A stretch of 64,000 nt of DNA from Nannocystis pusilla (GTDB taxonomy: Bacteria; Myxococcota_A; Polyangia; Nannocystales; Nannocystaceae), in assembly GCF_051105105.1 (NCBI RefSeq), contig NZ_CP185339.1; one strand, written 5' to 3'. The notes beneath the pieces were generated by a model. That model did not search any database and was not told the DNA's origin. It saw only the letters and a program-made list of their open reading frames with translations. The position numbers and the translations under genes were made by a program. This document shows, piece after piece, positions 22,116 through 59,320 of the stretch; positions within the stretch are counted from its first letter, which is position 1, and every line of letters begins with the position of its first letter.

Positions 22116-22868
22116 AGCATCCTCCTGTCGTTCGGACAGCGCCTCGCACTGTACCAGACTGGACCACGGCGCCGACGGACGGAGCTCGTCGCGGCATGTC
22201 GGGGCTCCGGCGGCCGTGCGGACGCTGTTTCGTTCGATCGGGGCGGGACGCTCGGACCGGAGGGGGCCCTGCTGGCCCGGGGCAAACCGTCGGCCCACCG
22301 ACGCGGATGGGTTCGGAGCTGCTCCGAACCAGGGGCCTTCTCCGGGTCTCGATTCGCACTGTGAACATTGACCCGGCCGGTCTTCAATAGACGTACTGCA
22401 GCAGCTCGGGCCAGCCGTCGAGCTCGTGGAGCCGTCGCTGGTGGCCGTGGAGCCGTCGCTGGTGGCCGTTCACTGGCCCGGCGGGTGACGGCGCTTCGCC
22501 GGGCGCTCCGCGAGCGATCCACGAATTTCACCGGCGCAGGGCAGGGCGCGTGCGCCATCGATGCATTGCGACGCATGTCCCGTGCATCGGAGATGTCATT
22601 GTCAGTAGGACTCGCGTCCCCCCACTCGAGCGGGCGTCGGCGAGCCTGAGCTCGGTACCTGTCCCGAAGGACGTTCAAGACATTCGAGCGCAGCGAGGGA
22701 TATTCCCAAGGGCCCAGGCAACCTCTCTGCCCTGCGGAGCTTGCGCGCGAGCGTCTTTTGCCTCCGTGCTGCAGTCGCACGGGCGTCTCGCTTCGACGAG
22801 AGAGTTCAGGCGTCGCGCGCTCGCTTGCCGCCCCCGCGGACCCGTCGCAAGAGGGCTCCGGGGTCATC

Positions 22869-23534
22869 ATGCGCTTGCTCCTCCCTCGAAACATGTTCCT
22901 CACGCTGGCCGGCGCGCTCGTTGCGGTGCTGTTCTCGGGCTGCGCCAAGCGTGGTTCGCAGGACCCCGCCGATCCCGAGGTCGCGCCCGGACCTGCCGAG
23001 CAGAAGATCGCCGGCGGCACGCTGTTCGAGAAGCACTGCGCGAAGTGCCACGGCGCGCTCGGCAAGGGCAAGGACGATGCGCCGGCGGTGGTCGGCGAGG
23101 CGGCGCTGGCCCGCTTCAACAACGCGCAGGACCTGTTCGACTTCATCCGCAAAGAGATGCCCAAGGACAACCCGGGCAGCCTCAAAGAGGGCGAGTACTG
23201 GGCGATCGTCGCCTTCGACCTCAAGGCCAACGGGGTCGACGCCGACGAGACCGTCGGCCCGCAGAACGCGTCCACCTTCATGCTCCACTCGGAAGGCGAC
23301 AAGGCCGACGACAAGCAGGACGCGGCCAAGGGCGACCACACCGACGACCGGGTCTCGTCGGACGTCAACGAGTACACGTTCGGTGAGAGCGCCTCGCCGG
23401 CGGCGACTCACGGGACGTGGACGATGACGTCGCTGAAGTACTGGCTCGAGAGCGACTTGTCCTTGCAGATCGTGCCGCTGATCAGGTGCTCGCCCTGGTC
23501 GAAGACGATCTGCACGTCGTGGGTGTCGGGGTAG
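22869..23534 (+). CDS. lipoprotein c-type cytochrome (single CxxCH); 3' end uncertain
   Basis: MRLLLPRNMFLTLAGALVAVLFSGC lipobox; CAKCH heme motif. Confidence 0.6.
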   Translation: MRLLLPRNMFLTLAGALVAVLFSGCAKRGSQDPADPEVAPGPAEQKIAGGTLFEKHCAKCHGALGKGKDDAPAVVGEAALARFNNAQDLFDFIRKEMPKDNPGSLKEGEYWAIVAFDLKANGVDADETVGPQNASTFMLHSEGDKADDKQDAAKGDHTDDRVSSDVNEYTFGESASPAATHGTWTMTSLKYWLESDLSLQIVPLIRCSPWSKTICTSWVSG

Positions 23535-25120
23535 ACGACGATGCTCTCCGGCCCCGAGTCGGTCGGGAACGAGGTGATGTTCTGGACCAGCACCGGCGCC
23601 TGGCCGGCGACGCCGCTCCACTTGTAGAGGCGGTACGGCCCCGCGGCGCCGTCCTTCGGTCCGCCGAGGATCAGCATCGCCGCGTGTACCGGCGACCACG
23701 CCATCCCGCGCACGCGCAGGCCGCCGAGGTCGAGCAGGACGGCCTCGCCGAACTGCGCGACGGCGCCGCCCAGCACCGCGTCGGCGTTGAGCAGCGTAAC
23801 CAGGATGGCGTCCGTGCCTTGCAGCGGGTTGCGGAAGCCGATCACCAATTGCTTGGGGCGCTGCGCGGTCGGCAGCCAGGCGAGACCCTCGATGTTGGCG
23901 CCGTTCACCTTGGGCGCGAGGTTGGCGTCGGTGGACTTGCTCAGGTTGGCGGCGGTGGTGAGCGTGGCGATCACGCTCGCGTTCGGCGTCAGCCAGTTGG
24001 CGCTCTTGACCATGTCGTCGAGCAGCTTCGAGGTGTAGCCGGCGCCCGTCAGCGACACGTTCGGTGCGGTCCCGGCAACGTCGACGGCGAAGAAGCGGTA
24101 ACGCATGCGCTCGAGGTTGCCGCTCTTGTCGCGCCCGTGCGAGCTGACGACGTAGATCCGGTCGCCGATCCGCGCCGCGTCCTCGAGGTCGGCCTCGTCG
24201 GAGCTCGACAGGCCGATGCTGGCGGACACGTCGAAGGTCTTGGCGGCGTTGGCGTCGGCGCCGCGCCGGTAGACCCGCAGACCCTGGTTCTCGTCGTTGC
24301 CGTCGAGGAAGTAGGCGCCGTCGAGGGCGACGCCGAAGGAACCGTCGCAGCTCTGCCTGTAAATGCCGGGCGTCGGGTCGAGCACGACCTCGCCGCCGTC
24401 GTCACCGGTGGTGCCGCCCTCCTCGGCCTCGTGCCAGGTGACGCTCAGCTTGGGCCGCTTGGCCTTGGTGCCGTACTCGCTGGCGCGGAACTCGAGGCGA
24501 TTGCTGGTACCCGCACCGTCGAGGAAAAAGCCGCGGTTGCTGCCCGGGTTCGCCACCCACTGCTGCACCAGCGCGACGCCGGCGGCGTTGAGCGAGAAGG
24601 TGACGGCGCCGGTGTCGGCCGCCGAGAACGAGCCGAGCGCGACGGTCCCGCGGTCGTTCACGCCGTAGCCGCCCGCCGTCTGCCAGCTGCTGCCGGTGTT
24701 CCACACGTTCCAGGTCGCGTTCGCCTCGTTCCACGCGCGCCTGGCCTCGTACAGCGAGAACGTCTCCGGGCTCTTGTCGGAGATCTCGAGCGTGACGCTG
24801 ACCGACTCGACGACCGCGGTGGTCGGGATCGCGGCGCTCAGGTCCCACGACAGCAGCGCCAGCACCTCGGTGTCCGCCTCGACCGACAGGCTGGTGTCGG
24901 CGCCGTTCTTGGCGCTGGGCGAGTCGCCGTCGAGCATGGTATCGCGCGTGCCGGCGTAGCTGGTGGTCGGCGCCTGGCCGTCCTGGAAGCTGACGGTCAC
25001 CGGCCCGCCGGCGCGCGCGACCACGGCATCGTCGTCGCCGTCTTCGCAACCGTGTGCCATGAACGCGAGCGCGCCGCTCGCAACGAGGGACAGAATATGA
25101 ATGCAGCGAGTGTGATGCAT
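23408..25120 (-). CDS. secreted lipoprotein of unknown function (beta-rich, 570 aa)
   Basis: Signal plus lipobox ALAFMAHGC. No alternative frame looks coding. Confidence 0.6.
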   Translation of the reverse strand: MHHTRCIHILSLVASGALAFMAHGCEDGDDDAVVARAGGPVTVSFQDGQAPTTSYAGTRDTMLDGDSPSAKNGADTSLSVEADTEVLALLSWDLSAAIPTTAVVESVSVTLEISDKSPETFSLYEARRAWNEANATWNVWNTGSSWQTAGGYGVNDRGTVALGSFSAADTGAVTFSLNAAGVALVQQWVANPGSNRGFFLDGAGTSNRLEFRASEYGTKAKRPKLSVTWHEAEEGGTTGDDGGEVVLDPTPGIYRQSCDGSFGVALDGAYFLDGNDENQGLRVYRRGADANAAKTFDVSASIGLSSSDEADLEDAARIGDRIYVVSSHGRDKSGNLERMRYRFFAVDVAGTAPNVSLTGAGYTSKLLDDMVKSANWLTPNASVIATLTTAANLSKSTDANLAPKVNGANIEGLAWLPTAQRPKQLVIGFRNPLQGTDAILVTLLNADAVLGGAVAQFGEAVLLDLGGLRVRGMAWSPVHAAMLILGGPKDGAAGPYRLYKWSGVAGQAPVLVQNITSFPTDSGPESIVVYPDTHDVQIVFDQGEHLISGTICKDKSLSSQYFSDVIVHVP

Positions 25121-25309
25121 GGGATGACGCGACCATCGGGCCGGACAGGCCCGCGCCGGGCATCCTAGGCATTCTCGATCATGAATGCGGTGACATGTCG
25201 GTCACAGCCCGGCGGCACCCCGTCACGACGGCGTGAGCATGTCGTCACGCGGACGAGCCGCGCGACGAGCTCCCGGCCTCCGCGATGCGGGCCGTCTGCC
25301 ATGAGACGG

Positions 25310-26131
25310 TCAGCGGTTGGTTGCGAGCATTCTCCTCGCCAGGACCGCCCCGCCCACCGCGCTGCCGCCGACGATGACTGCATAGGCGATCCCCGCGATC
25401 AAGTAATCCGAGTCCGAACTGAGTCGCCAGGCCACCACGCCCGCCGCGGCGATAAGTCCCGCTGCCGCGCCGCCGATCGCCAGGACCTTGATGAACATTC
25501 GTCGTAGTTCGGCCGGCGGCGGCGCGGCGAGAGCGGGCCAGCGGGCGAGGGCCTCGGCGGGCGGTCGGGCCGTGAGTCGCACGCACTCCTCGCTCTCGGC
25601 CCGCCACAGGGCGCGACCGCCAAACGCCTGCGACCAGCGCTCGTCCAGCAAGAAGCCGTCGCGCTGCCGGACGAGCTCGGCCAGCTCGCCGGCGAGGGCG
25701 GGTGTGTCCCTGGCGTCGATGTCGATCCGCGACAGGCGCACGCGCTGGAAGAACAGGCCGATGACGAGCTCCACGCCGAGCTGGCGCCACTGGCTCGTCG
25801 GTATGAACGCTGCGAGGTCCCGACCGATCACGACGATTCCGTCGCGCGCGCGCGGGCCGATGGATTGACTGGCGTCGGTCACGAAGGCCCGCCGCGCGGG
25901 CGCGGCCGTGCCGGCGTCGGGCTCGAGCGGCTCCGGTCCGCGTCGCTCGGCGAGCCGCAGCCTCAGCCTCGCCAGAGCGGCCGCGCCGATCGCCGCGACT
26001 GCCGCGAGAATCCCGAACACCCCATCCCGCTCCGCGGCTGCCAATCCGCCGAGCACGAGCGTCACCAGCAGCGAGGCCGCGAGCATCAGGCCGAGCATGG
26101 GCGTGGACTGTTCCCGCGAGCGCAACGCCAT
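25310..26131 (-). CDS. hypothetical membrane protein
   Basis: N- and C-terminal hydrophobic segments; start chosen at the internal Met. Confidence 0.3.
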   Translation of the reverse strand: MALRSREQSTPMLGLMLAASLLVTLVLGGLAAAERDGVFGILAAVAAIGAAALARLRLRLAERRGPEPLEPDAGTAAPARRAFVTDASQSIGPRARDGIVVIGRDLAAFIPTSQWRQLGVELVIGLFFQRVRLSRIDIDARDTPALAGELAELVRQRDGFLLDERWSQAFGGRALWRAESEECVRLTARPPAEALARWPALAAPPPAELRRMFIKVLAIGGAAAGLIAAAGVVAWRLSSDSDYLIAGIAYAVIVGGSAVGGAVLARRMLATNR

Positions 26132-26377
26132 GCGCCTGCGATAACACGCCCAAGTCCCGCACTGGCGGTCGGGTATGCGCAGTCGACGCCTTTCTACTCT
26201 GAAGCGCTGCGCGCGCAATGTGGTCTTCGGGCCGACGCAGAGCCCAACGTCTCCCGGCGCTGCACCAACGATGTCGACCACTTCCGCTCGTGGCGCCTGC
26301 AGGGGCCGACGAGCGCGTGGCGCGTTGTGGCGCATTCAGGAAAACATTTTCTGGCGATGGGTTATCGTGGTTTCGGC

Positions 26378-27340
26378 ATGGACGAGCGTTCGAGCGGCTC
26401 CGAGGACGCGCCCGCGACGGCGCTGGCAGATGATTGGTCCGTCCTCCTGGCAGTGACCGAGCAGTTGAACGCGGCGACGGCCCGCGAGGCGACGCTGCAG
26501 GCATTCCTCCTGCCGGCGCCGCGGCGCGACGAGGCCGAGGTCGTGCTCTGCACCGTCGAGCACGACGCGGACGACAGGCCGGAGTGGCTCTCGGTGGCGG
26601 TGGTCCGGCCTGCAGCGGTGCGGCCGGCGCGGTCCCGTGTCGGCGACCGCCACCACCTCCCTGACATGCCGTTTTCGCGGTTCTGGCTCGAGCAACCGGG
26701 AGTGCCGGTGCTCGTCGGGTCCGCCGCGACCGATCCGCGGATCGATCCGGTCCTGCGCGACGTCTGGGCGGCCGCCGGTATCAAGGCGGCGCTGCTGATC
26801 GCGTTGACCCTGCGCGCCCGCGTCGTCGGCGTGTTCTCGATCCAGTGGAGCTGCGAGGTGCCGCTCGGCCCGCGGGAGCGGCGGATCTACCAGATCCTCT
26901 CGCGCAACGCGGCGCTGCTGCTGGAGAACATGGTGATCGTCGATCGCCTGCAGGCCGCGCTGGCCGAGCGGAGCGCGCCGCTGATCCCGATCACCGACGA
27001 CATCCTGGTCATGCCGCTGATCGGCACGCTCGACGAGACTCGCCGCGCGCGGATCCTCGAGGTGGCGCTGCAGGGGTCGTCCGCGGCGCGGGTCACGATC
27101 ATCGACATCACCGGCGTCCCGTCGCTCGACGTCCACGCCGCCGCGCTCCTCACCAGCACCGCCCAGGCGCTGCGGCTGCTCGGCGTGCTCCCGATCCTGA
27201 GCGGCGTGCGTGCGGAGGTCGCCCGGGATCTGATGGCTTTCGGCGACCCGCTGACCGGCATCGTGACCTGCGGGACGCTCCAGGCCGGCGTCGAATACGC
27301 CCTGCGGCAGCTCGGCAAGCCGTATTCGCGCGCGATCTAG
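26378..27340 (+). CDS. GAF-STAS sensor protein (RsbR-like)
   Basis: C-terminal STAS IPITDDILVMPLIGTLDETRRARILE...VTIIDITGVP, closely parallel to the 10288 gene. Confidence 0.7.
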   Translation: MDERSSGSEDAPATALADDWSVLLAVTEQLNAATAREATLQAFLLPAPRRDEAEVVLCTVEHDADDRPEWLSVAVVRPAAVRPARSRVGDRHHLPDMPFSRFWLEQPGVPVLVGSAATDPRIDPVLRDVWAAAGIKAALLIALTLRARVVGVFSIQWSCEVPLGPRERRIYQILSRNAALLLENMVIVDRLQAALAERSAPLIPITDDILVMPLIGTLDETRRARILEVALQGSSAARVTIIDITGVPSLDVHAAALLTSTAQALRLLGVLPILSGVRAEVARDLMAFGDPLTGIVTCGTLQAGVEYALRQLGKPYSRAI

Positions 27341-27381
27341 GCCCGCCGTCGGGGAGCGCGTCGTCGTGGTATATCGCGGCG

Positions 27382-28159
27382 ATGGCGACCTTATCCGAGT
27401 CGGGCCGGCGCGCCGGGACGAACGTGCTCCGCGAATGGATGCCCGACCGGATCCTCCGCCTCATGGTGTTGCAGCAATTGATCGACGCCGGTGAGATCGA
27501 GCCGATCACCGCCGAGACGGTGTACCCGGCGGTGCGCGGCCAGCCATTCGACGCGTGGGCGGAAGACGGCCATCGATTCAACGAGGACATCGCGGCGTAC
27601 GTCGACGACACGCCGGTCGACGAGGCGATGCTGGCGAGGGTGACGCGGTTGCCCACGGACCCGAGCGCGGACCTCGTGTTCGTGATCTGGCCGCAATTCG
27701 ACGGCGAGAGCGACGAGTTCGAACGTCACCGATCTGTCGGGGCTCGAGCGCTTGCCCGCGCTCGCGGAGCTGTTCGTCGAGGTCCGCCGCCAGGCCGACC
27801 TCGCGGTCGTGGCGCGTTGCGCCCGCCTGACCGCGGCGTCGCTGGACTGCCGCGTGCCTCTCGACCTCTCCCCGCTGGCCGCCCTGCGCGGGCTGCAGAC
27901 GCTGGAGCTGCTGCACGCCGAGAACGTCGCCGACCTCGCCTGGCTGCGCGCGCTGCCGGAGCTGACCGCGCTGCGGCTGCACGGCGATCCGCAGGCGCTC
28001 GATCTGCGGCCCCTGCTCGACGTGCCCGCGCTCGCCTCGGTCGCCCTGCTGCGCACCGCGTTCGTCGAGGGGACGAATCCGTCCGTGCTGGCGTTCGGGG
28101 ACAACGCGCTGGTCCTCGCCGCCCTGTTCGTCCGCGGCGTCGCGGTGGAGACGCGCTGA
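27382..28159 (+). CDS. leucine-rich-repeat protein; frameshift ~27720
   Basis: N-terminal frame MATLSESGRRAGTNV... is joined by a shift at ttcgaacgtc to LRR-like LSGLERLPALAELFV...LQTLELLHAENVADLAWLRALPELTALRL. Confidence 0.5.
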
Positions 28160-28255
28160 GTCTGCCCGACGGTCGGGCCGGTTCGCCCCGGTCGAGGCCG
28201 CCGGAGAGCCGGGACGTCGCGGCGTGTCCTTCGCCTTGACAAATGGTTCACGAGC

Positions 28256-28753
28256 ATGAACCATTTGTTCACGCAAACCATGGCCCGCGCCCCCGACGAT
28301 CCAGTGAACGCGCGCCTGGGCGCCCTGCTCGAGGCGTTCATGAACCGGGTCGCCCATCCGCGCGGGCGCGCGCTGGCGTTCTTGACCCGGTCGTCGGTCA
28401 CCGTCGACCAGGCGATCCTCGTCGACCACGCGCTGACCCGGCCCGGCAGCACCCCGACCAGCCTGGCGGCGACGATGAACCTGTCACTGCCCTCGATCAG
28501 CCAGATGATCGAGCGGCTGGCGCGGCTCGGCATGCTCCGGCGCACCGAGGACCCGGCCGATCGCCGGCGCAAGACGATCGCGGCCACCCCGAAGGCCCGA
28601 AGGTTCCTCCGCGAGCTGCAGGCGGTCCGCTCGCAGGAGTTCTCGGCCGGCGCGGCTGCCCTATCGCCCGCCACGCAGCAGCGGCTCGTCGCGGCGCTCG
28701 AACGAGCGCTGGCCGAGCTCGACCCCGACCCGTCCGCAGGAGCACCGCGATGA
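28256..28753 (+). CDS. MarR family transcriptional regulator
   Basis: Winged-HTH region and conserved DRRRK. Confidence 0.85.
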   Translation: MNHLFTQTMARAPDDPVNARLGALLEAFMNRVAHPRGRALAFLTRSSVTVDQAILVDHALTRPGSTPTSLAATMNLSLPSISQMIERLARLGMLRRTEDPADRRRKTIAATPKARRFLRELQAVRSQEFSAGAAALSPATQQRLVAALERALAELDPDPSAGAPR

Positions 28754-29118
28754 TTCAGCTCGACCACCTGGCCGTCGAGGCGCGCGACGTCGCCGCCTCG
28801 GCGCGATTTCTGGCCGGCATCCTCGGCCTCGCGGACCCCGTGCCCGAGGGCGAGGACGACGACATGTTCCGCATCGACCTCGACCACGGGGTGTTCGTCC
28901 TGTTCTCGCCGGCGAGCGAGCCGCGCTTCTCACACGTTGCTTTCCGCGTCGACGCTGCTCGCTTCGACGGCATCGTCGACCGTCTGCGCGCGCGCGGGGT
29001 CGCGTTCGGCAACGATCACGACGACACCCGCAACTACCGGACCGACGACTTCCTCGGCGGCGCGGGCCGCGTCTATTTTCACGACGCCGACGGCCACCTG
29101 TGGGAGGTGACCTGCTGA
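28750..29118 (+). CDS. VOC/glyoxalase-family protein
   Basis: MIQLDHLAVEARDV...HVAFRV...; ATGA overlap with marR. Confidence 0.8.
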   Translation: MIQLDHLAVEARDVAASARFLAGILGLADPVPEGEDDDMFRIDLDHGVFVLFSPASEPRFSHVAFRVDAARFDGIVDRLRARGVAFGNDHDDTRNYRTDDFLGGAGRVYFHDADGHLWEVTC

Positions 29119-29136
29119 AGCCGTTCGCCGCGCGCC

Positions 29137-30676
29137 TCAGGGCGCGAAGGCGTCGAGCTCGATGCGGAGCGCGCGGACGACGATCTCGCCCGGGAGGCTG
29201 CCGTGCAGGCGCAGGCCGACCGCCAGCGAGTTGCCGTTCGCCTGCGCGTGCGTGGCGACGAGGGTGTCGCCGAACTCCGCCCACGCGTCGGAGGTCGCGA
29301 GCCGCGGGATGGGCAGCGTGAGGACCTCGAGCGGGTCGGCGCCGTCCATGGTCACGCGGAACACGTGCAGCGTCGAGGTGGTGGCGTCGCTGACCACCGA
29401 GGGCTGGCAGAAGCAGCCGAAGCGCTCCTCGCACTCGAGGGTGTACTCGTAGGTGGTGTCGAGCTGGGTGGTGACCACGACTGCCCAGGCGAGGCCGTCC
29501 GGCGTGCGGGCGAGCGTGGCGGTGTGGTCCTCGAAACCGGTGGCGGTCTCGATGCACGACGCCGGGCACTTGTCGTCGTCGTCGGGGAACACGGAACCTT
29601 CGCACATGCTCTCGAGCAGGCCGAAGCCGGGGAGCTGGGCGGCGGCGCTGGTCTCGTCGTCGACCGGCCAGGCGACCTCGAGGAGGGCGTCGTCCTGGAT
29701 GAGCGCGGCGAACGGAGCCCCGACCGGCGGGGTCGGCTGCGCGCTCGGGACGAGGAAGTAGTGCTGGCCGTCGGACGAGTTGAAGTTCTTGCCGAGGCGC
29801 TGCACGGCGCCGTCGACCTCGACGTTCGAGCCAGTACAAGGAGTCCTCCTTCCGCATGTCGGCGGCGAGGAGGCGGCCCTTCGCGTCGCGCCCGAACCTG
29901 GGCGTGCCATAGCCGCCGGTCGGGAAGGCGACGGGGGCGCTGGTCCATGTGCCCTGGTCGTCGCGGACGAGCTCGCGGAAATCCTCGGGCCCCTCGCCGA
30001 AGTGCCAGATGTGCGGCCGGCCGTCGGGGAGGACCTGGAACCCGGCCAGCGGCTCGCCGGCGATGCCCACGTGGGCGGTCTCCTCGGCCCAGTCGTGCGC
30101 CTCGGCGACGTAGGCGATGTCCGCGTCGGTGGGCTCGAGCGTGCCCTGGACCTCGGCGGCGAGGTGCAGGTCGCCGCCGGGGCCGGCGGCGAGGTGAATC
30201 GTGCTGCGCGCGAAGCGGGCCGGCAGCGTGACTCGCTGGGCCGAGTCGGTGGTGACGCGGAAGAGCATGCTGTCGGAGCTGCTCGAGGTGGCAACCCAGG
30301 TGACGTTGGGCGTGGGGACGACGCGGACGCCAGGGCCGCCGAATTCGGAGTCGCCGCAGCGAAGCTCGACGTTGGCCGAGATCGGGCACGTGCCGGAGGG
30401 ACAGACGGCAGCGGCGTGGTCGCCCGGGAAGACCTGGACGTTGCACGCGGACGGCGGCGGATCGACGGTCGTGGTCGACGTCGTGGTCGGCTCGTCGAGC
30501 GTGGTGGTGGTGGTCGGGGTGAGGGTGGTGGTCGTCGTGGTCTCGCCGGGATCGGTGGTGCCGTCGGTGGTGGTCTGGGTGCCGCCGTCGGTGGTGGCGT
30601 CGCTGGTCGAGGTCGAAGGGCCACACGCGAGCGACAGGACGCTGGCGTTGGCGAGGAGCATAAGTAGGCTGCGCAT
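29137..30676 (-). CDS. lipoprotein with Thr-rich linker, unknown function; frameshift ~29825
   Basis: MRSLLMLLANASVLSLAC lipobox plus a TTTTLTPTTTTT linker. The C-terminal half continues in the 29137..30858 frame. Confidence 0.6.
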
Positions 30677-30948
30677 GCGCGGGAGGCTATCACGGACCCG
30701 GAGCGCGGCGGGGCAAACAATCGGCAAGGGAGACTCGCCGTTCGTGACAGTCGCCCGAGGCAATGGCGGCTCGGCATTGCATGTACCGCAGGCGTTCCGA
30801 GGTTTCCGCACACGCTGCGCGTGACGCGTGGGGCGAGCGTTGCAGCCCCTCGCGACATCGCGCGGGGCGCTTGCTCCCACTTTCAACGCGGTTCGAGTCG
30901 TCGGCGAGATCGGGTATAAGTCCCGCCGCTGCCGGAGAGCGAAGACGG

Positions 30949-32403: not shown

Positions 32404-32524
32404 CTCCACGGACAACGGCCGAGGCCGGCAGAGCCGTCGCTCGCGCCGCGAGGACCCGCACCCGTGGACCTTCAGCCGTGTCGCGCAGGCGTTGCACTCT
32501 GAGGGTCCCTCCGAGGAGAGACCC

Positions 32525-33112: not shown

Positions 33113-33222
33113 GAGCGGTCGAGGCGAGAGCGTCGAGCTGACCTCGGCGGCTGTGCGGCCGCGCCGTGCGATCGACGGTGTCGCGGCTGCGCCTCGCAGG
33201 GTATCCTCCGCACGGGGGCGCC

Positions 33223-34074: not shown

Positions 34075-34364
34075 TTCACGACGGCGCAACAGGCCGGTGG
34101 ATGCCGCCCGGCGAGCAACCACGGTAACGAGGCGGGCTCGCCCGAGCCGCGCGAGCACGAGGTCGATGCGCTCGGGTCGCCAGCGAGCCGTGAGCGGCGC
34201 GACGGGCGAGTTGCAGCGGTGCGAACGCGCCTCGCACCGTTGCGACGACGCGGCGACCCGCGACGCGTACACTCGCAGCATTCGCTCGCAGGCGCGACTG
34301 TGAGCATTGTTCACGGCGCGCGCGAGCCACGACGGATTCATCCGTCAGGCACGAGGAACCAACC

Positions 34365-34580: not shown

Positions 34581-34597
34581 GGTCGTCGCTCCTGCGC

Positions 34598-45268: not shown

Positions 45269-45285
45269 CGCGGCGGTTTTGAGCG

Positions 45286-45470
45286 ATTGTGAGGACATGT
45301 CCGATTGGACACGTCATCCCATCTCGCCCTGTTCATGGTGGCCGGCTGACCCTCGGGACATGCCGGAATGGCCATGTATCGCAGCGTCGCACGCCGTTGC
45401 CGCGGCGACCATGCTGCTCTTTCAGTCATGCCCGGAGGGGCATGCCTCAAAGGTCATCCAGCCGAAGCCT
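45286..45470. repeat. cluster of GGACATGTCC-type palindromic repeats (low-GC island) between convergent genes
   Basis: gaGGACATGTCCgattGGACACGTCA...cGGGACATGCCggaaTGGCCATGTA...aGTCATGCCCggagGGGCATGCCtc. Confidence 0.6.
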
Positions 45471-46291: not shown

Positions 46292-46617
46292 GGTCTCCTC
46301 CGGGCGCCAGAGTAGCCCGGCGGGCGGGGCGGACGAGATGTCCGAAGGGACATCTGGTGACAGGACCGGCACCGGGCCGGGCGAGCGCCGCGGGACCCCC
46401 GCGGTGCGCGAAATGACGCCGACCGCCGATGCGGACGCGGAAGTCGCGTCGCCGGGCCGATTGGCAGCATTTGCGCGGGGCATCGGTGCCCGCAATTGGG
46501 GCACGGGCCGTCTCCAGGCGTGGGATCTCGCGTGCGATGAATCCGGCGCAGGTGCGTTCATCGGGCCTGCTCCGAGCCTGCGGCGGCGGTCGCCGCGCCC
46601 GCCCACGCGGGGCGGTC

Positions 46618-49074
<2,457 letters not shown>

Positions 49075-49120
49075 ATCGCACTCCGGGCAATCACCGTTGC
49101 GAGCGCTCCGCGCCTGGCCT

Positions 49121-50293: not shown

Positions 50294-50396
50294 CGGGCGC
50301 CTCGGTCGCGGTGCCGGTCCCGCGAACGCGGCGGAGCTCGCTGCTGCGATTCGCCGGCGCGGCCGTCCGGGGGCGCCGGGCCTCCGACAGCCGCGC

Positions 50397-51712: not shown

Positions 51713-51714
51713 AC

Positions 51715-51800
51715 CGGAGGACATGTCCCGAGGAGAATGTCCGAAGGAGCATGTCCTGTGCGGCATGTCGAAATGAACATGGCCTGAAGGCCACATCAAA
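51715..51800. repeat. array of ATGTCC repeats at 14-15 bp spacing in a convergent intergenic region
   Basis: acATGTCCcgaggagaATGTCCgaaggagcATGTCCtgtgcggcATGTCGaaatgaACATGG. Confidence 0.6.
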
Positions 51801-51803
51801 AGT

Positions 51804-52247
51804 TCAATCGAGCGGCCGCGTCATGAGCACCCGCGGCGGGGCGGTGAAGCCGGAGCGGCGGTAGAGCTCGATGGCGGGCGTGTTGTCGGTGCGGACCATC
51901 AGGTGGACCGCGCGGGCCCCGTGGGCGCGGGCGGAGGCGAGGGCGGCGTCGAGGAACAGGCGGCCGCGACCGGCGCCGCGGACCTCGGCCCGCAGATACA
52001 GCTCGGTGAGGAAAGCGTCGCGTCCGCCCCACTCGAGGTCGAAGCCCCAGGTGAGCACGAAGTAGCCGAGCGGCGCGTCGCCGTCGAGGCCGAGGACCAC
52101 CGTGCCGAGCCCGGGCGAGCCGATCAGGGTCCGCAGCGGCGCCTCGCCGGGCCCGCGGCGCCACGGGATGTGCTCCAGGCGGTTGAAGTCCTCCATCATG
52201 TCGAGGATCGCGGGGACATCGGAGCTGGTGGCCGGGCGAAAGTGCAT
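51804..52247 (-). CDS. GNAT family N-acetyltransferase
   Basis: AEVRGAGRGRLFLDAALASARAHGARAVHLMVRTDNTPAIELYRRSGF. Confidence 0.8.
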   Translation of the reverse strand: MHFRPATSSDVPAILDMMEDFNRLEHIPWRRGPGEAPLRTLIGSPGLGTVVLGLDGDAPLGYFVLTWGFDLEWGGRDAFLTELYLRAEVRGAGRGRLFLDAALASARAHGARAVHLMVRTDNTPAIELYRRSGFTAPPRVLMTRPLD

Positions 52248-52338
52248 CGTGCCGGCACTATAGGCCCACCGCGGAGCTTGCGCGCCGGCGGCCGGTTTCA
52301 CGCGTCCGGGGGCCCCCAGGGCCAGCGGGCGCCGATCC

Positions 52339-54205
<1,867 letters not shown>

Positions 54206-54219
<14 letters not shown>

Positions 54220-56599
54220 GCGCCGGGCCGCGCTGACGCTGCTGCCGGTCTTGCTGCAGGTCTTGCTGTCGGTCTTGGCCTGCGCCCCGCGCGGGCCGGC
54301 GACCGCGGAGCCAGGTGCGCCGAAGGACATGTCCAAAGAGACATCCGGTGCGGCCGCGGTGGCGGCCTGTGACAAGCAGGCGAGCGCGGTCCAGGACGGG
54401 CTGGTGCGCCTGGCCGATCGCTACCTGTGGGAGGAGATCGAGCTGCTCGTGCAGGCCCACGCGGCGACCCGCGGCCGGCCCGACGCGACCCGCTGCGCCG
54501 AGGCGACCCGCGCGGCGCTGACGACCGTGACGCTGCGCTGGGCCGAGCAGGGGGCCGAGTCGGGCGGGTCGCAGAGCCACGCGCTGGCCCGCCAGGCCTA
54601 CGCGGCGCTGCGCAAGCACTTCCCCGCCGAGGCCGAGGCGCCGCTGCTGCACCACGCGATGGGCAAGCTCGAGTGGGCCCGCGCCGAGCGCCTGACGCTC
54701 GAGATCGGCGAGCGCACCCTGACCGACGACGCGCTGCGCGAGGCCCACGCCCACCACCGCGCCGCCCTGGCCGGCGGGCTGCCGACCGAGCAGGCCGCCC
54801 GCTCGGCCCGGGCCCAGCTCGACGCGGTCCGCCGCGTGCGCGAGGGGGAGCCTGCTCCATGGGTCATGTCTGAACAGACATGCCTGCCGGACCCGCGCGG
54901 CCGCTGCACCGACCCGGTCCCGCGCGTCGCTCCCGGCGAGATGACGGCCGGCGACCGCGAGTGGCTGGCCGCCTACGACGCCTTCCTCGCCGAGCCCGGG
55001 CTGCAGGGCACGCCCGAGGCCGGGCAGGTCGCGGTCGAGCGGGCCGAGCTGCTGATGCGATACCGCCGCTGGGACGAGGCCGAGACCAGCCTGCGCGCCG
55101 TCAGCGGGCCGGCGCGCGAGCAGGCGCGGGTGCTGCTGGTCGGCCTGCTGCTGGCGCGCTGGATGGAGGCCGCCAGCGCCGGCGAGCGCTCGGCCGCCCG
55201 CGTCGCGCTCGTCACCACGGCGGTCGAGGTCGAGGCCGCTGGCGGGCCGCAGGTGGCCCAGGTGGCGGCGCTGCGGCGCGCGGCACTGTGGGCCCAGGCC
55301 GAGGAGTCGGAGGCGGTCGGGGACGACGCCCGCTGCGGCGCGGCCTTCGAGGCGCTCTACGCCGACCTCGGCGCCGACCTCGACGCCGCGGCCGAGGCGG
55401 CCGACGGCGCCGGTCGCTGCTACGAGCGCGCCGGCCTGACGCAGAAGGCGATCGACTGGCTCGAGCGCATGGCCGACGTCCACCGCGAGGACCCGCGGGC
55501 CCCCGACGCGGTGCTGCGGCTGGCCCGCTTGCACGAGCGGATCTTGAACGACGAGCAGGCCCGCGACCGCTACCTCGATCTGGTGGCCCGCGCCCCGCGG
55601 CACCGCGCCGCCGCGACCGCCCGCCGCCGCTCGCTGATCCTGAGCCTGCGCGCCGGGACATTGCCCGAAGGACAGCTCGACGCGCTGATCCGCGGCCGCC
55701 CGGAGGAGCGCACGCTGGCGGCGGCGATCCAGTTCCGCGCGGTGTTCCGCCCCGGCGTCACGCCCGAAGCGGCCGAGAAGTACATCGAGCGGTTCGGCAA
55801 GGAGGGCGGGCCGCGGCGGCTGGCGATCGCCCACGCGCGCGCGGCCGAGGCGTGGCTGCGGGTGTCCTGCCCGGTCCCCGGGGCCGAGGGCCTGTGCGTC
55901 GAGTTCGGCCGCGACCGCACGCCGGCGCGGGTGGTGGCCCGCCTGCCCAAGCCGCACGCCAAGGGCCGCGAGCACCTCGACCGCGCGCAGAAGCTGCTGC
56001 CCGAGGTCAGCGGCGGCGAGGTCGACAAGCTCGAGGCGCCGATCGCCGTCGACGCCGAGGAGGCGCGGGCCGCCAGCCGCCAGGTCGCGCTGCTGCAGGG
56101 CGACCTCGACGCCGAGTCGGCGCTCACCAGCCAGCCGCCGAAGAGCCTCGACCCGGCCCGCTCGCGCGCGTGGCTCGAGGTCCGCAAGGCCGAGGTCGAG
56201 CGCATGAGCGCGGTCTACGAGACCGCGACCGCGGGCGGGGCGGGCGGCCGCGATCAGTCGGCGGCGCTGGTCGAGACCCGCAAGGCGCAGGTGTACGAGT
56301 CCGACCTGGCGCTGCTCGACGAGGTGGCCGCCGCCGTCGAGGCCGCCGGCGACGCCGGCCTGGCCCAGCAGATGCGCGAGCTGGCGGCCCAGCGCCGCGA
56401 GGCGGTGTTCACGGCCTACGCCCGCTGCCTCGACCACGTGGCCGCGTGGGGCCACGACGCCGGAGGCCAGAGCGCCCTGTGCCGCGCCGGCCTCGGCCGC
56501 CTGGTCGGTCGCTACGAGGAGCCGCTGGAGTACGCGCCCGACCACGATGGGCGGGTGATCGTCGGCGCGGCGGCCAGAGCCTCGGGCCCGCCGCGGTGA
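54206..56599 (+). CDS. TPR-like helical-repeat lipoprotein, overlaps kinase gene end
   Basis: LLQVLLSVLAC lipobox. Confidence 0.55.
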
Positions 56600-56699
56600 G
56601 GCGGAGAGCTTGCGAACGGCGGGCGGGAACCACCGGCGCGCGGACAAGCCGCGAGCTCGCTGCCGTCATGACGACGGACTCGCCGCGGCGACGCGCGGG

Positions 56700-56812
56700 A
56701 GCAGAGCGCGAGATCGATGAGACATGCTCGAAGTACCATGTTTCATCGAGCATGTCGCATTGTACATGCCGATGAAGACATGTCCATCAGGGCATGTCCG
56801 AACAGGCAGCCT
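56700..56812. repeat. array of ~6 (A/C)CATGTCC-like repeats at ~14-bp spacing in a convergent intergenic region
   Basis: gagACATGCTCG..taCCATGTTTC..gaGCATGTCGC..gtACATGCCg..agACATGTCCa..gGCATGTCCg. Confidence 0.6.
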
Positions 56813-57926
56813 CAGTCGCCGAGCTCGCGCAGCAGGATCCGCGCGCGCAGGCGGCGGCGCTCGTCGGCGCCGAGCCCGTCGACGTAGGCCCGCAGGAGCG
56901 CGCGGGCCTCGGCGCGGGCGGCCGGGTCGGCGGCGTCGGCCAGCAGGATGCCGAGGTTGAAGGTCAGCTCGGGCGGCAGCTTGGCGGGCGCCGTAGTGTC
57001 GAGCCCGAGGCTCGGAGAGCGCGTTGCGGTAGGCGGCCTCGGCGGGCTCGCGCTCGCGGCGGCGGGCGTGGCTCACCCCGAGGCCGAGGAACGCCGCGTA
57101 GCGCAGGCGCGGCGAGGGCGCGGCGGAGGCCTGCTGGTACAGCCGCACCGCCTCGTCGAGGTTGCCGGCCGCGAGCTCGGCGGCGGCCCAGGCGAGCGCC
57201 GCGGCGTGGTCGTCGGGCGCCAGCTCGAGCGCGCGGGCGAAGCGGCGCCGACCGTCCACCGGATCGGCCGAGCGGAAGGCGATCCGCCCGCACGCGGCCG
57301 CCAGCACCGCCGCGCCCTCGCGGTCGCGCAGGCGCGCGAGCAGCGGGTCGGCGCGGTCGCGGCAGATCGGCGCGGCCCGCTCGCGCGGGTCGGCGTCGTG
57401 CAGCGCGGTGAAGCGCAGCGCCAGGCTCAGGGCGTAGGGGTCGTCGGCGGTGACCGCCAGGGCGGCCGCAACGTCGCGCGCCAGGGCGGCCGCGTCGATC
57501 GGCCCGTCGCGCTTGCCCGGGTCCTCGGGCCGCCGCGCCCTGAAGTCGAGGTACGCCGAGAACGTCGCGGGTCAGGCGGTAGACCGCGCGCGCGCCGGCC
57601 GTCAGCGGCAGCTCGCCGACGGCCGCGTCGATGTCGCCGACCCGCCCCGACTCGTGGGCCAGCACCGCCAGCGCGTAGGCCCGCGCGGTCGAGCCCGGCT
57701 CGCGGCGCAGCAGGGCGAACCGGATCGCCAGCGCGCCCGCGTCGTCGCCGCAGCGGAGCAGCACGTCGGCCCGGGTGAGCGCGCGGGAGCTGTCCCCGGG
57801 GACAGGCGCCGGGGCGCACGGATCGATCTCGGGCACGGCCGGGGGCGGGGCCGGCGGCGCCTTGTCCGGCGCCGTCTGACGCGCGCAGGCGAGCAGGAGC
57901 GCGCAGAGGAGCAGGGCGCGGGGCAC
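56810..57926 (-). CDS. TPR-repeat lipoprotein, two frameshifts
   Basis: MPRALLLCALLLAC lipobox. Three collinear frames are joined at 57558-57567 (GAACGTC) and ~56980 (C-run). Confidence 0.5.
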
Positions 57927-58083
57927 GGGGCGGCGAGGATATCAGCGCGGGGCGAACTTCTCCACGAAGCGGAGGCGCCGGGGCCGGCCGCGGACCGGCA
58001 GGTCGTCGGCGCCGCAGAACCATGCTTCGCCGGTCACGAGGCCGCAGTTTGACGAGGGGTGCATCGGAGCACCGCCCGGCCTG

Positions 58084-58350
58084 CTACGAGCGATCGCGGT
58101 CCAGACGGTCCAGGTCCACGTCCGAGCGTCGCGCCGAGAGGGCATGGCGGTCCCGCCACTCTTGCATGCACCGCCAGCACCCGAGGCGGTCGAGCTCGTG
58201 GCGCCGCCGCATCACGGTCTCGTCGCGCGCGCCGGTCGCCAGCGCCCGCTCGAACAGGGCCTCGCACTCGCGGCAGATCCACACCGGGAAGAGCAGCACC
58301 GCCTCGATCAGGTCGATCAGGCGGTCCTCCTCGCGCGCGGTGAAGACGTG
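58084..58350 (-). CDS. small CxxC...CxxC zinc-ribbon protein (hypothetical)
   Basis: CRECEALFER...CWRCMQEW. The upstream part of the track ORF is a repeat-derived artefact. Confidence 0.3.
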   Translation of the reverse strand, partial: HVFTAREEDRLIDLIEAVLLFPVWICRECEALFERALATGARDETVMRRRHELDRLGCWRCMQEWRDRHALSARRSDVDLDRLDRDRS

Positions 58351-58671
58351 TGCGCAGGCGCCGAGCGTGCCGCTCTGGCCCGTGCCGCTCGCAACGAATC
58401 GAGCCCATGGCCGCGATCTTGCCCGTCGAGCTCGCCCGGTCCGGCCCCTCGTGGCGCGAGTGGGAGCCGCAGGACGACCGCGCCCGCGGCGCGAGTCTTC
58501 GCCACGTCTGCCGGAAGTAACATGTCCTTGGGGACATGTCATGACATTGTCATCGATTCGCCGCCTCCCGCGCCGGCGGCTTCCCCGCCGTGAGCAGAGG
58601 CCGATCTGCGGCGAATGTCGATACCCTGAATAGGCAGAGTCGACGCGCGTCCGTGCGCACCGAGGTTTTAA

Positions 58672-59175
58672 ATGAAAATGCACAAGCTCTTCCTGACCCT
58701 GTTGGCGCTCCTCTTCAGCGTGACCGGTTGCAGCTTCACGCTCTCGTCGCACGGCGGTTGGGGGTCGGAGGGGCCCGCGCCGCGGATGGCCAGCCGCGGT
58801 TACGGCTGGGCCTCCGCGGGCGACCCGGGCCTGCACGGCCGCGGCAAGCCGGCCCGCCGCGTCGACGCCGGCGAGCGCCCCGCGACGAAGCCGGCCGGCG
58901 CGGCGCCCACCAAGGCGAAGCAGCCGGGGATCACGTGGGCGGGCGAGGTGCCGCAGAAGGCGAAGAAGCCAGGGATCACGTGGGCGGGCGAGGTGCCGCA
59001 GAAGGCGAAGAAGCCGGGGATCACGTGGGCGGGCGAGGTGCCGCAGAAGGCGAAGAAGCCGGGGATCACGTGGGCCGGGAAGGTGCCGCCGAAGCGGGCG
59101 AAGCAGCCGAGCAAGCCCGCCGGCAAGCGGCCGGCGATCACGTGGGCCGGCACGGTCCCGCCGCGCCCGCAATGA
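58672..59175 (+). CDS. lipoprotein with ~4.5 tandem 15-aa repeats (PGITWAGEVPQKAKK)
   Basis: MKMHKLFLTLLALLFSVTGC lipobox; 45-bp DNA tandem repeats 58921-59130. Confidence 0.65.
   Translation: MKMHKLFLTLLALLFSVTGCSFTLSSHGGWGSEGPAPRMASRGYGWASAGDPGLHGRGKPARRVDAGERPATKPAGAAPTKAKQPGITWAGEVPQKAKKPGITWAGEVPQKAKKPGITWAGEVPQKAKKPGITWAGKVPPKRAKQPSKPAGKRPAITWAGTVPPRPQ
58921..59130 (+). repeat. 45-bp coding tandem repeat x ~4.5
   Basis: ccggggatcacgtgggcgggcgaggtgccgcagaaggcgaagaag repeated. Confidence 0.8.
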
Positions 59176-59224
59176 GGTCGAGCAGGCGCGGCGCGCGAGG
59201 CGCTCGCTGAACCTGCTCACACGG

Positions 59225-59320
59225 CCATGTCCATGAGGACATGGCCGTTTTTGTTGCGCCGGTGCTGGCGCGTCGCGTTCTTCTCATGACTAATCGGACA
59301 TGTCCTCTCAGACCGGCGCG
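59225..59320. repeat. inverted repeat CCATGTCC-atga-GGACATGG plus GGACATGTCC palindrome
   Basis: ggCCATGTCCatgaGGACATGGcc ... aatcGGACATGTCCtc. Confidence 0.6.

Follow-up and report, generated by a model that had tools for sequence, protein, structure and literature searches.

A stretch of 64,000 nucleotides from Nannocystis pusilla (contig NZ_CP185339.1), here called the window, carries a family of short palindromic repeats that form low-GC islands within a 72% GC genome. An earlier note on this DNA had considered operators of one dimeric transcription factor, a MITE- or REP-like mobile repeat, and a recombination- or defence-related motif. We asked how these repeats are built, how far they have spread, where they lie relative to genes and what might recognise them.

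Repeat copies and array architecture

The palindromic repeat family is real, with all counts in the window far above expectation. GGACATGTCC occurred exactly at 45293, 51719, 54325 and 59296 (4 observed, 0.07 expected), and 14 sites matched it with at most one mismatch (0.9 expected). For ACATGTCC-N4-GGACATGT at up to three mismatches, 11 sites were found against 0.05 expected. Units with at most two mismatches and an in-phase partner numbered 18, compared with 1.3 in simulations. The clustering in the 45-59 kb half of the window, as proposed earlier, was confirmed, and with one exception the instances listed there are members (Table 1), the copy within 59221..59255 being placed at 59223-59246. 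The exception is the pair at 22571..22598, which was rejected as a canonical member, its units being 18 bp and not 14 bp apart; it is a chance match or a decayed copy. Copies had been described as scattered across intergenic regions, which is mostly true; the exceptions are one copy inside a kinase gene and two elements inside a lipoprotein ORF, both of which the earlier note had placed correctly.

Table 1 Repeat copies in the window, with their genomic context and their state in the related genomes ILAH1 and N. punicea.
Feature	Coordinates	Strand	Context	Comparison and remarks
Weak units ACGCATGTCC + GGAGATGTCA	22571..22598		Non-canonical	Out of register
Two-unit element GGACATGTCC gatt GGACACGTCA	45293..45316		25 bp past S1/P1 nuclease gene stop, convergent intergenic region	Diverged copy in both ILAH1 and N. 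punicea
Degenerate two-unit element GGACATGCCG gaat GGCCATGTAT	45356..45379		Same convergent region as 45293	Conserved in ILAH1
Degenerate two-unit element AGTCATGCCC ggag GGGCATGCCT	45424..45447		Ends 7 bp before MOSC gene stop	Compensated arm variant CATGCCC/GGGCATG; ILAH1 has GGGCATGTCC
Two-unit element CGAGATGTCC gaag GGACATCTGG	46334..46357		Divergent promoter region, 42 bp upstream of MOSC start codon (46292)	Operator-like copy; identical including spacer in ILAH1 and N. punicea; fold z-score -4.0
Array, 5-6 units, 14-bp register	51719..51798		7 bp past DUF3089 gene stop; ends before convergent GNAT gene stop	TRF period 14; array retained behind DUF3089 in ILAH1 and N. punicea
Copy inside kinase gene	53502		Coding	
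Two-unit element GGACATGTCC aaag AGACATCCGG	54325..54348		Coding: N-terminal linker of lipoprotein/TPR ORF 54206-56599	ILAH1: arms identical, spacer different at 3/4 positions
Degenerate two-unit element GGTCATGTCT gaac AGACATGCCT	54862..54885		Inside lipoprotein/TPR ORF 54206-56599	Canonical register if degenerate C/G beside spacer is counted
Six-unit array	56720..56799		Between convergent lipoprotein/TPR gene (stop 56599) and minus-strand gene (stop 56812)	CATG at 56723, 56737, 56751, 56765, 56779, 56793 (14-bp steps; TRF period 14); ILAH1: all six CATG cores identical, spacers diverged, compensatory T-A to C-G change between units 1 and 3; fold z-score -5.6
TAACATGTCC ttgg GGACATGTCA, the window's only perfect 16-mer	58518..58541		Divergent region, between small minus-strand gene 58084-58407 and lipoprotein gene 58672-59175	ILAH1: degenerate copy AAAATGTCC tttg GGCCATGTC
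GGCCATGTCC atga GGACATGGCC, compensated arms, 12-bp extended stem, then TTTTGTT	59221..59255	+	46 bp past lipoprotein gene stop	Resembles a canonical intrinsic terminator; best terminator-like match in 44-64 kb; fold -25.8 kcal/mol, z-score -5.2; 100% conserved in ILAH1
Exact unit GGACATGTCC (59296-59305) + decayed partner TCTCATGACT	59282..59305		Convergent region, before minus-strand ORF ending at 59359	ILAH1: exact unit kept, flanks diverged

The family is built on the inverted repeat CATGTCC-N4-GGACATG, with (G)GACATGTCC-N4-GGACATGTC(C) as the minimal form. Each arm is close to a palindrome, which lets elements join head to tail; the resulting arrays have 2-7 units and a strict 14-bp period. 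This tandem register, recovered by TRF as period 14, was absent from the earlier note. Among the non-ascertained copies plus the window, the spacing was N4 in 26 cases, N3 and N5 in one case each and N18 in nine, and no exact unit was without a partner at +/-14. The spacer sequence is free, the stem barely extends past the motif, and nothing is conserved in the flanks beyond the ~10-bp arms, so that the family is not a MITE. In terminal units the spacer-side half was better conserved than the outer half, pointing to an entity centred on the spacer. Arrays occasionally grow by direct 14-bp slippage: adjacent spacers were identical more often than by chance, and one locus (L096) had four identical 14-bp units.

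Abundance and placement relative to genes

A scan of 185,579 species genomes for the element matched at least 120 loci; 98 of the 120 matches listed were Nannocystis/Nannocystaceae loci, scattered along the chromosomes. Units at up to one mismatch numbered 11 per 21 kb in the window, 10 in ILAH1 and 13 in N. punicea; 21 kb from the sister-genus strain ST9 contained no such unit. The repeat family is specific to the genus Nannocystis. Viral contigs, when scanned, yielded only eight isolated matches. The literature searches found no matching element, in line with the earlier note's failure to recognise one, and the family is apparently undescribed.

Arrays are found mainly a short way past stop codons, with convergent gene pairs the favoured setting. 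Array density was 3.5 per kb in convergent intergenic DNA, 1.3 in tandem regions, 0.39 in divergent ones and 0.12 in coding DNA, all upper estimates since the tiles were selected for carrying a perfect element; convergent regions were ~9-fold denser in arrays than divergent ones. We estimate roughly 1,500-3,000 arrays per ~12-Mb genome. The 322 arrays in total included 92 in convergent regions, 15 in divergent regions and 83 in coding DNA, the last count being uncertain with a tile gene map from a simple GC3-based caller (80% coverage). Arrays in tandem regions lay a median of 65 bp past the preceding stop codon and 236 bp short of the following start. The same picture emerged when genes were called independently in ILAH1 and N. 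punicea. The positional count favoured the 3' ends of genes, not promoters. This location makes the regulon reading fail for most copies.

Most window arrays, too, sit between convergent genes, at 3' ends and not at promoters, which the earlier note had not described; two copies (46334 and 58518) are in divergent promoter regions. Across species (87% protein identity), arrays stay at the same gene ends, and units and spacers turn over. By analogy with REPs, the 3'-end bias may only reflect tolerated insertion sites.

Sequence constraint and arm co-variation

Clear constraint was seen only on the central CATG of each unit, which diverged by 3.9%, compared with 10.1% for intergenic DNA (p = 0.009), 16% for the outer arm positions and 21% for the spacer. 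Spacers and outer positions evolve ~2x faster than other intergenic DNA; an excess of spacers changed at several positions together was not significant.

Compensated arm changes were more frequent than in shuffles (132 vs 72 +/- 8), and single-sided uncompensated changes exceeded them by ~8 to 1. In co-directional contexts there was no G-U sense/antisense asymmetry (G-U 50, A-C 52). A U-tract accompanied ~7% of arrays, and more than 90% were without one. T-rich tails were somewhat enriched and sense-biased (tandem 6 vs 1; convergent 6.5%; background 2.6%).

Match to PadR operators

The canonical PadR operator is ATGT-N8-ACAT (PMC3506622, PMC5428041), and B. subtilis PadR reads the 6-6-6 layout CNTGNA-N6-TNCANG (PMC5728393). 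The two-unit element contains ATGT-N8-ACAT exactly and fits the 6-6-6 layout; the constrained C, T and G of CATG correspond to the PadR contacts (PMC5728393). Position 11/18 is C/G in the Nannocystis element and A/T in the B. subtilis site. A spacer that is strict in length and free in sequence is what a dimer site would show. Adjacent array sites have a CATG half-site in common, so neighbouring dimers would clash.

In each of 8 actinobacterial genomes the identical 20-mer was found twice, ~45 bp upstream of PadR-family genes, and it is the presumed PadR auto-operator in Kribbella, Nocardia and Amycolatopsis; this identity was ascertained by the search pattern, and the independent match comprises only ATGT-N8-ACAT and the CATG contact pattern. 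No PadR gene was found in the window, in 98 Nannocystis tiles or in two orthologous loci, and the best 120 relatives of the actinobacterial PadR were all actinobacterial. PadR operators also differ in being one or two promoter sites, whereas the Nannocystis elements occur in an estimated thousands of copies, mostly after stop codons and in overlapping arrays. The compensatory arm changes are unexpected for a plain duplex operator and favour a hairpin-level process.

Discussion

REP and BIME sequences of Enterobacteria, Pseudomonas and Stenotrophomonas, which are RAYT-associated, share many features with the family: short, lineage-specific, extragenic palindromes in hundreds to thousands of copies, a strong 3'-end and convergent preference, regular clustered arrays, conserved stems with variable loops, and some copies that are terminators or mRNA stabilisers. 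A REP-like repeat (genus-wide, high-copy, extragenic) is the best supported of the three earlier options. A classical REP/REPIN copied by a RAYT (IS200/IS605-type Y1) transposase that recognises an ssDNA hairpin would agree with these likenesses, with arrays that recall BIMEs, and with arm co-variation lacking RNA-strand bias, as fits a DNA hairpin. It is nevertheless rather unlikely, as the GTAG or CGTC end tag that defines RAYT-type REPs (PMC3733652) showed no enrichment (GTAG 7-9, controls 7-10; CGTC 32-50, controls 54-58) and the Pfam scan of array-adjacent genes (including 17/23 genes bracketed on both sides) turned up no Y1 transposase. The absence of a common loop or flank sequence gives no sign of copy-and-paste from master copies. 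Unlike REPs, moreover, the units are only 10 bp and self-palindromic, so that the arrays are direct and inverted repeats at once, the linker is exactly 4 nt, and the elements are islands of low GC. Hairpins of RNA or ssDNA could also act without a dedicated duplex-binding protein, as bidirectional terminators or mRNA 3'-end stabilisers like some REPs, their common sequence coming from descent and local slippage. Such a role is suggested by the 3'-end and especially convergent location, the significant arm co-variation (including one change between the near-identical genomes of the window and ILAH1), strongly negative fold z-scores for several arrays, the extended stem and U-tract at 59221-59255, and the T-rich tails. 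Intrinsic (Rho-independent) terminators are likewise stem-loops right after stops that often serve two convergent genes. In Neisseria, inverted DUS pairs act as terminators, and DUS/USS are often inverted pairs in terminators. We still hold this explanation to be unlikely on balance, given the missing G-U asymmetry, the scarcity of U-tracts, the predominance of uncompensated changes and a stem hardly longer than the motif. One window copy, 59221-59255, combines the full stem with a U-tract, and the stems of the arrays, unlike those of terminators, are AT-richer than their surroundings. Intrinsic terminators have no common stem sequence, and hairpins alone leave unexplained the genus-wide fixed arm sequence, the constrained CATG amid fast-evolving neighbours and the near-absolute N4 spacing.

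A neutral by-product, in which slippage-prone palindromes spread and decay where harmless and have no host function, would account for the visible slippage and for array positions that mostly evolve faster than other intergenic DNA, and the context bias is as compatible with tolerance as with function. This is quite improbable: the CATG core shows constraint when compared with neutral DNA, different species retain arrays at the same gene ends despite unit turnover, and slippage by itself could not have placed one 10-mer at thousands of unlinked sites. We judge a signal for recombination, DNA uptake or self-recognition, along the lines of DUS/USS or to Neisseria dRS3/NIME (ATTCCC-N8-GGGAAT, thought to be a recombinase target; PMC1797815), very unlikely. 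The dRS3 layout is similar, namely an abundant intergenic 20-bp inverted repeat with short conserved arms, a free centre and arrays varying in length between strains, and frequent exchange between copies could cause the fast evolution of spacers and outer positions. However, dRS3 copies lie 50-150-bp RS elements apart and are linked to phage integration, whereas Nannocystis units are 4 nt apart, and no recombinase, phage or competence gene was associated with them in the DNA examined. The few isolated viral matches and the non-significant excess of multi-position spacer changes also count against it, and variable spacers would block exchange between copies by a tyrosine recombinase. As for the leading idea of the earlier note, operators of one transcription factor with the adjacent MOSC, hydrolases, kinase, lipoproteins and ATP-grasp as its regulon, the dimer-site geometry and the PadR operator match (PMC3506622) stand, as do the MOSC-upstream copy, perfectly conserved in three species, and the perfect copy at 58518 between divergent genes. 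The neighbour-gene regulon itself is unsupported for most copies and highly improbable: few arrays are in divergent regions, arrays hug the upstream stop codon, the estimated number of sites is far beyond any regulon, copies on the promoter side precede genes of unrelated function, and the N. punicea array remains behind DUF3089 despite a different downstream gene.

To the reading we prefer, a REP-like family whose arms are recognised by a dimeric, possibly PadR-like, candidate protein and which acts as 3'-end punctuation, we assign a probability of about 0.5. The conserved arms would be the recognition site of a sequence-specific dimeric protein reading the duplex, with a PadR-type winged-helix dimer as the best candidate, and they may still be able to form a hairpin or cruciform. 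Such elements could serve as REP-like punctuation at the ends of transcription units, where a protein-bound palindrome or hairpin might block or insulate read-through, U-tract terminators being few in this 72% GC genome. A minority of copies, such as 59221-59255, may have turned into canonical terminators. Overall, the family looks like a genome punctuation mark recognised by a protein, not a set of gene switches. A few promoter-proximal copies, for example the one upstream of MOSC, are probably ordinary operators of that protein.

Occurrence in the window and across genomes

The repeats are built from a near-palindromic unit of about 10 bp, GGACATGTCC. Four exact copies were found in the window, while 0.07 were expected from dinucleotide-preserving shuffles. 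With up to one mismatch there were 14 sites (expectation 0.9). The element, two units around a 4-nt spacer (ACATGTCC-N4-GGACATGT), matched 11 times with up to three mismatches (expectation 0.05), and 18 units had an in-phase partner, compared with 1.3 in simulated sequence. The motif thus occurs above background. All instances listed in the earlier note were genuine members except one, which is out of register because its two weak units stand 18 bp apart. The low-GC islands also give rise to the spurious short peptides of six-frame translations, as had been proposed.

For a species-level scan, one genome from each of 185,579 species was searched with the exact pattern ACATGTCC-N4-GGACATGT, and at least 120 loci (L-numbers) matched. 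Nannocystis and other Nannocystaceae supplied 98 among the matches listed, from about eleven genomes and at positions spread along whole chromosomes. A scan of viral contigs gave only eight isolated matches, which is chance level. For the DUF3089 protein of the window, identity was 96% with the protein of Nannocystis sp. ILAH1 and 87% with the one of N. punicea. Two window proteins searched for by exact sequence had no record. The orthologous 21-kb locus held 11 units with up to one mismatch in the window, 10 in ILAH1 and 13 in N. punicea, and none in the sister-genus Nannocystaceae strain ST9 (61% protein identity). Array density was ~0.13 per kb in the window and ~0.26 per kb in the tiles (stretches around Nannocystis matches) after removal of the ascertained copy. 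Extrapolation from these densities, rather than a direct count, gives an estimate of ~1,500-3,000 arrays per 12-Mb genome. The repeats form a genus-wide, strongly non-random family of extragenic palindromic repeats.

Coordinates of repeat copies and other features. Window positions are in window numbering; L-numbers are loci matched in the species-level scan or orthologous loci
Feature	Sequence	Position
Exact GGACATGTCC units	Window	45293, 51719, 54325, 59296
Arrays between convergent genes	Window	45293-45447, 51719-51798, 56720-56799, 59221-59305
Six CATG cores of array 56720-56799	Window	56723, 56737, 56751, 56765, 56779, 56793
Period 14 by TRF	Window	51723-51756, 56779-56806
Copies in divergent regions, at promoter position	Window	46334-46357, 58518-58541
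Copies inside coding sequence	Window	54325, 54862
Terminator-like copy	Window	59221-59255
Out-of-register weak units	Window	22571-22598
CCTG/CAGG sub-family sites	L029, L079, L020, L035; possibly window	635-672; 440-533; 3556-3593; 7357-7380; 57786-57809
Actinobacterial PadR locus	L015; likewise L028, L047, L049, L116, L021, L063, L066	1010-1063 (L015)
Long convergent intergenic region	N. punicea (L130)	13667-14508
Small separate palindrome TGACATTGTCA	Window	58541-58553
Frame-switching stretch, minus strand	Window	56812-57940
Frame switches of this stretch (near)	Window	57050-57075, 57440-57570
Intact 370-aa counterpart	ILAH1 (L129)	16393-17505
Remnant ORF, lipoprotein to ATP-grasp gene	Window	59359-59682
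362-aa gene, same interval	ILAH1 (L129)	18945-20033
Lipoprotein ORF	Window	58672-59175
45-bp tandem repeat in this ORF	Window	58912-59094
21-bp tandem repeat	Window	22425-22469
CGACGA-type repeats	Window	12699-12808
ATP-grasp and VgrG genes with downstream ORFs	Window	59670-63469

Anatomy of units and arrays

Anatomy was determined on 835 kb of Nannocystis DNA, consisting of 98 tiles of 8 kb and the window. Here, 434 units (up to one mismatch) fell into 322 arrays. Most arrays had two units (190) or one (80), and the others had three (27), four (12), five (9), six (3) or seven (1). The window arrays are tandem with a 14-bp period, a register unnoticed in the earlier note and detected at two places by TRF. 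Spacing within ATGTCC-N-GGACAT, counted on the window and on copies outside the search-pattern selection, was 4 nt in 26 cases, 3 and 5 nt in one case each, and 18 nt (4 + 14) in nine. None of the exact units was solitary: a partner at ±14 was always present with up to six mismatches (up to five in 56 of 57), while control offsets typically gave 6-8.

By information profile, conservation ended within about 2 nt of the arms, loops and flanks were unrelated between copies, and the 4-nt spacer had no consensus. In terminal units, conservation was higher in the spacer-side half than in the outer half, whichever pair of mirrored positions was compared (C4 0.95 versus G7 0.64, for example). Selection therefore acts on the spacer-centred inverted repeat CATGTCC-N4-GGACATG and not on the lone 10-mer. 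A sub-family, CCTGTCC-N4-GGACAGG, likewise points to a spacer-centred inverted repeat, since its units are not self-palindromic and yet pair up as perfect inverted repeats. Of the double changes at its unit position 5, 24 were compensated and 2 were not, and the sub-family may indicate a paralogous binder or a second specificity. Self-palindromic units have no defined orientation; the sub-family shows both inverted and direct arrangements.

Arrays sometimes lengthen by direct slippage, as in locus L096, where four 14-bp units are all identical. Adjacent spacers were identical at 1.30 of 4 positions, compared with 1.09 ± 0.09 by chance, and the mirrored spacers expected from fold-back array growth were not seen. 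One unusually long convergent intergenic region of N. punicea (840 bp) carries several arrays, with seven or more units in total. In the window, a small separate palindrome, TGACATTGTCA, adjoins a perfect hairpin, and its ILAH1 copy differs by one base.

Placement relative to genes

Context counts rest on a GC3-based gene map. Arrays were densest in convergent intergenic regions (92 arrays, 3.5 per kb), followed by tandem (100, 1.3 per kb) and divergent regions (15, 0.39 per kb) and coding sequence (83, 0.12 per kb). Overall, intergenic density was 10-30 times the coding density (322 arrays, 835 kb). Arrays in tandem regions were nearer to the preceding stop (median 65 bp) than to the following start (median 236 bp). 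With independent gene calls in ILAH1 and N. punicea, every intergenic array came after a gene end.

The earlier note had raised, as one option, operators of one transcription factor. A positional bias is present at the 3′ ends of genes. This placement is the opposite of what an operator regulon predicts, and such a regulon is unsupported for most copies, with 15 of the 322 arrays in divergent regions and most after stops.

Conservation between species

The same gene ends carry arrays in the window, ILAH1 and N. punicea; in the latter, the array behind DUF3089 has been kept despite a different downstream gene. Divergence classes were taken from whole-locus alignments of eight species pairs, which supersede an earlier orthologue test on only 9 pairs, partly ascertained and too small. 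Divergence was 5.9% in coding and 10.1% in alignable intergenic sequence. Compared with the latter, the CATG core diverged less (3.9%, p = 0.009), and the outer arm positions (16.3%, p = 0.004) and the spacer (21.4%, p = 2e-7) diverged more. Constraint is limited to the CATG core, and the remainder of each array turns over fast. The exception is a copy that precedes the MOSC gene start by 42 bp and is identical in all three species including its spacer. Spacers with simultaneous changes at several positions seemed over-represented, but the excess was not significant.

Hairpins and terminators

The arms co-vary. There were 132 compensated double changes, versus 72 ± 8 with shuffled partners (maximum of 1000 shuffles, 96). 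An individual case is a T-A to C-G compensatory change in units 1 and 3 of the array at 56.7 kb between the window and ILAH1, which are about 96% identical. Several arrays had fold z-scores of -4 to -5.6 relative to shuffled sequence. Uncompensated arm changes outnumbered compensated ones by about 8 : 1, and stem extension past the motif was weak (9 vs 2 elements with at least five extra pairs). In co-directional contexts, wobble-compatible changes numbered 50 on the sense and 52 on the antisense strand, and there is thus no sign of strand-specific RNA selection.

An intrinsic terminator consists of a stable stem-loop followed by a U-tract at the 3′ end of a gene. Stem-loop and 3′-end position were present here, but a T-rich tail followed only about 7% of arrays, and canonical intrinsic terminators were rejected as an explanation for most copies. 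The tail was found on the sense side of 6 of 88 tandem arrays and on the antisense side of one, and on 11 of 168 convergent sides, with a background of 2.6%. In the window, a single copy has the full stem-loop plus U-tract form. With its 12-bp stem and the TTTTGTT that follows, it is a terminator of textbook type, and it is fully conserved in ILAH1. Rfam gave no match near the gathering score across 40-64 kb of the window. From these results, the potential to pair is kept up either in the DNA itself or by the way in which copies originate.

Comparison with known repeats and operators

High-copy extragenic palindromes have been known above all in gamma- and beta-proteobacteria, where they are tied to RAYT (Y1, IS200/IS605-type) transposases; the transposase gene is flanked by repeats, and clusters have units in alternating orientation. 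The Nannocystis repeats resemble REP/BIME in copy number, lineage restriction, extragenic 3′-end placement and clustering, and are short, imperfect, high-copy palindromes (322 arrays in 835 kb). One end of a REP element bears a conserved tetranucleotide, GTAG or CGTC (PMC3733652). The Nannocystis family differs in having no such tag or conserved flank: GTAG was found at 7-9 of 318 arrays versus 7-10 in control windows, and CGTC at 32-50 of 318 versus 54-58. By Pfam, there was no transposase among the 17 scanned of 23 genes bracketed by arrays on both sides (~0.8 Mb, ~11 genomes), a sample in which a single-copy gene is easily missed. A MITE has terminal inverted repeats around a conserved body of 50-500 bp and a target-site duplication. 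Of the MITE/REP-like origin proposed in the earlier note, the REP-like part holds for placement, abundance and clustering, while MITEs are ruled out by the free 4-nt spacer and by the lack of conserved sequence beyond the arms. MrpC-type sites (GTGTC-N8-GACAC) differ in spacing. The layout of conserved arms and a free centre is shared with Neisseria dRS3 (ATTCCC-N8-GGGAAT), which forms dynamic arrays and is a proposed recombinase target (PMC1797815); no recombinase or phage genes were found beside arrays in the DNA examined. Literature searches with GGACATGTCC returned only papers on the eukaryotic p53 half-site, a sequence coincidence. In the searchable literature, work on palindromic repeats of Nannocystis or myxobacteria and on REP/RAYT did not describe the element, in agreement with the earlier note. 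We regard the family as apparently undescribed REP-like repeats.

The closest operator is that of PadR, an inverted repeat ATGT-N8-ACAT (PMC3506622, PMC5428041). ACATGTCC-N4-GGACATGT contains it exactly, as ATGT-(CCNNNNGG)-ACAT, with a strict N4 (26:1:1); a dimer site would be expected to combine such a fixed spacer length with a free spacer sequence. Base contacts of Bacillus subtilis PadR are CNTGNA-N6-TNCANG (PMC5728393). With CATGTC-CNNNNG-GACATG, the Nannocystis core shares this 6-6-6 layout, and the contacted C, T and G match its most constrained bases, while position 11/18 is A/T in B. subtilis and C/G in Nannocystis. PadR operators also differ in position: they lie in promoters of the regulator or its target, and only few Nannocystis copies lie at a promoter while most follow stops. 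Neighbouring sites within an array share CATG, an overlap that weighs against the PadR reading.

Eight of the 22 non-Nannocystis loci among the matches listed are one orthologous locus (Kribbella, Nocardia, Amycolatopsis). Two copies of one 20-mer, ACATGTCC-N4-GGACATGT, 30 bp apart, lie there ~45 bp upstream of the start of a PadR-family gene (PF03551 + PF10400), which is divergent from a short-chain dehydrogenase gene. The pair is probably an uncharacterised auto-regulated PadR operator; its 16-base identity with the Nannocystis element follows from the search pattern. No PadR gene adjoins the remaining matches from other phyla, which look like chance hits. Members of the PadR orthogroup occur widely among Actinobacteria, and the best 120 relatives of the Kribbella PadR were all actinobacterial. 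No PadR gene was found in ORFs of the window, the tiles or the ILAH1 and N. punicea loci (phmmer and an HMM of the eight actinobacterial PadRs on window/tile ORFs). A Pfam scan of 20 genes facing promoter-side copies and 10 array-bracketed genes gave no DNA-binding candidate and no transposase.

Other features of the window

On the minus strand, the third-codon-position GC signal of one stretch switches frame twice, and its ILAH1 counterpart is one intact gene; the stretch may be a frameshifted pseudogene or contain sequence errors. Between the lipoprotein and ATP-grasp genes, the window is ~860 bp shorter than ILAH1 and keeps only a remnant ORF of ~108 codons. Inside a lipoprotein ORF, 4.1 copies of a 45-bp tandem repeat (94% matches) encode repeated KAKKPGITWAGEVPQ. 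Other repeats are a perfect 21-bp × 2.1 tandem repeat and CGACGA-type repeats with periods 15, 18 and 33, the latter probably inside coding sequence. The R2K-clade ATP-grasp gene adjoins a gene for VgrG, the type VI secretion spike, and the repeat-rich stretch stops at this boundary.

Significance

The 14-bp register, the 3′-end placement, the constrained CATG core and the co-varying arms are observed features of the family. Our main reading, with a probability of about 0.5, is that the arms are a putative site of a sequence-specific dimeric protein (best candidate, a winged helix of PadR type), that the arrays are REP-like punctuation of transcription-unit ends, and that a few copies act as ordinary terminators or operators. 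It seems rather unlikely that Nannocystis has recruited a PadR-like or other winged-helix dimer for a role in architecture or termination across the genome. Such a dimer would bind the ~1,500-3,000 palindrome arrays after genes, and a bound array would be a sequence-specific roadblock or insulator ending transcription between convergent genes, in a genome whose GC content would be too high for ordinary U-tract terminators. If true, this would be a protein-plus-palindrome termination system of a kind not described in bacteria.

The motif can serve as a diagnostic marker of Nannocystis DNA in metagenomes, and gene calling is aided because arrays mark gene ends. REP-like genome-wide punctuation is now seen in a myxobacterial genus with 12-Mb, 72% GC genomes. 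It is built from a different part than REP, a 10-bp self-palindromic unit in a 14-bp register, without the REP tag and with a sequence identical to the operator of a common regulator family. If the PadR-like binder is true, a transcription-factor site would have multiplied to become a structural or termination signal of the whole chromosome, and the family would give a handle on how transcription-unit ends are marked in very GC-rich bacteria.
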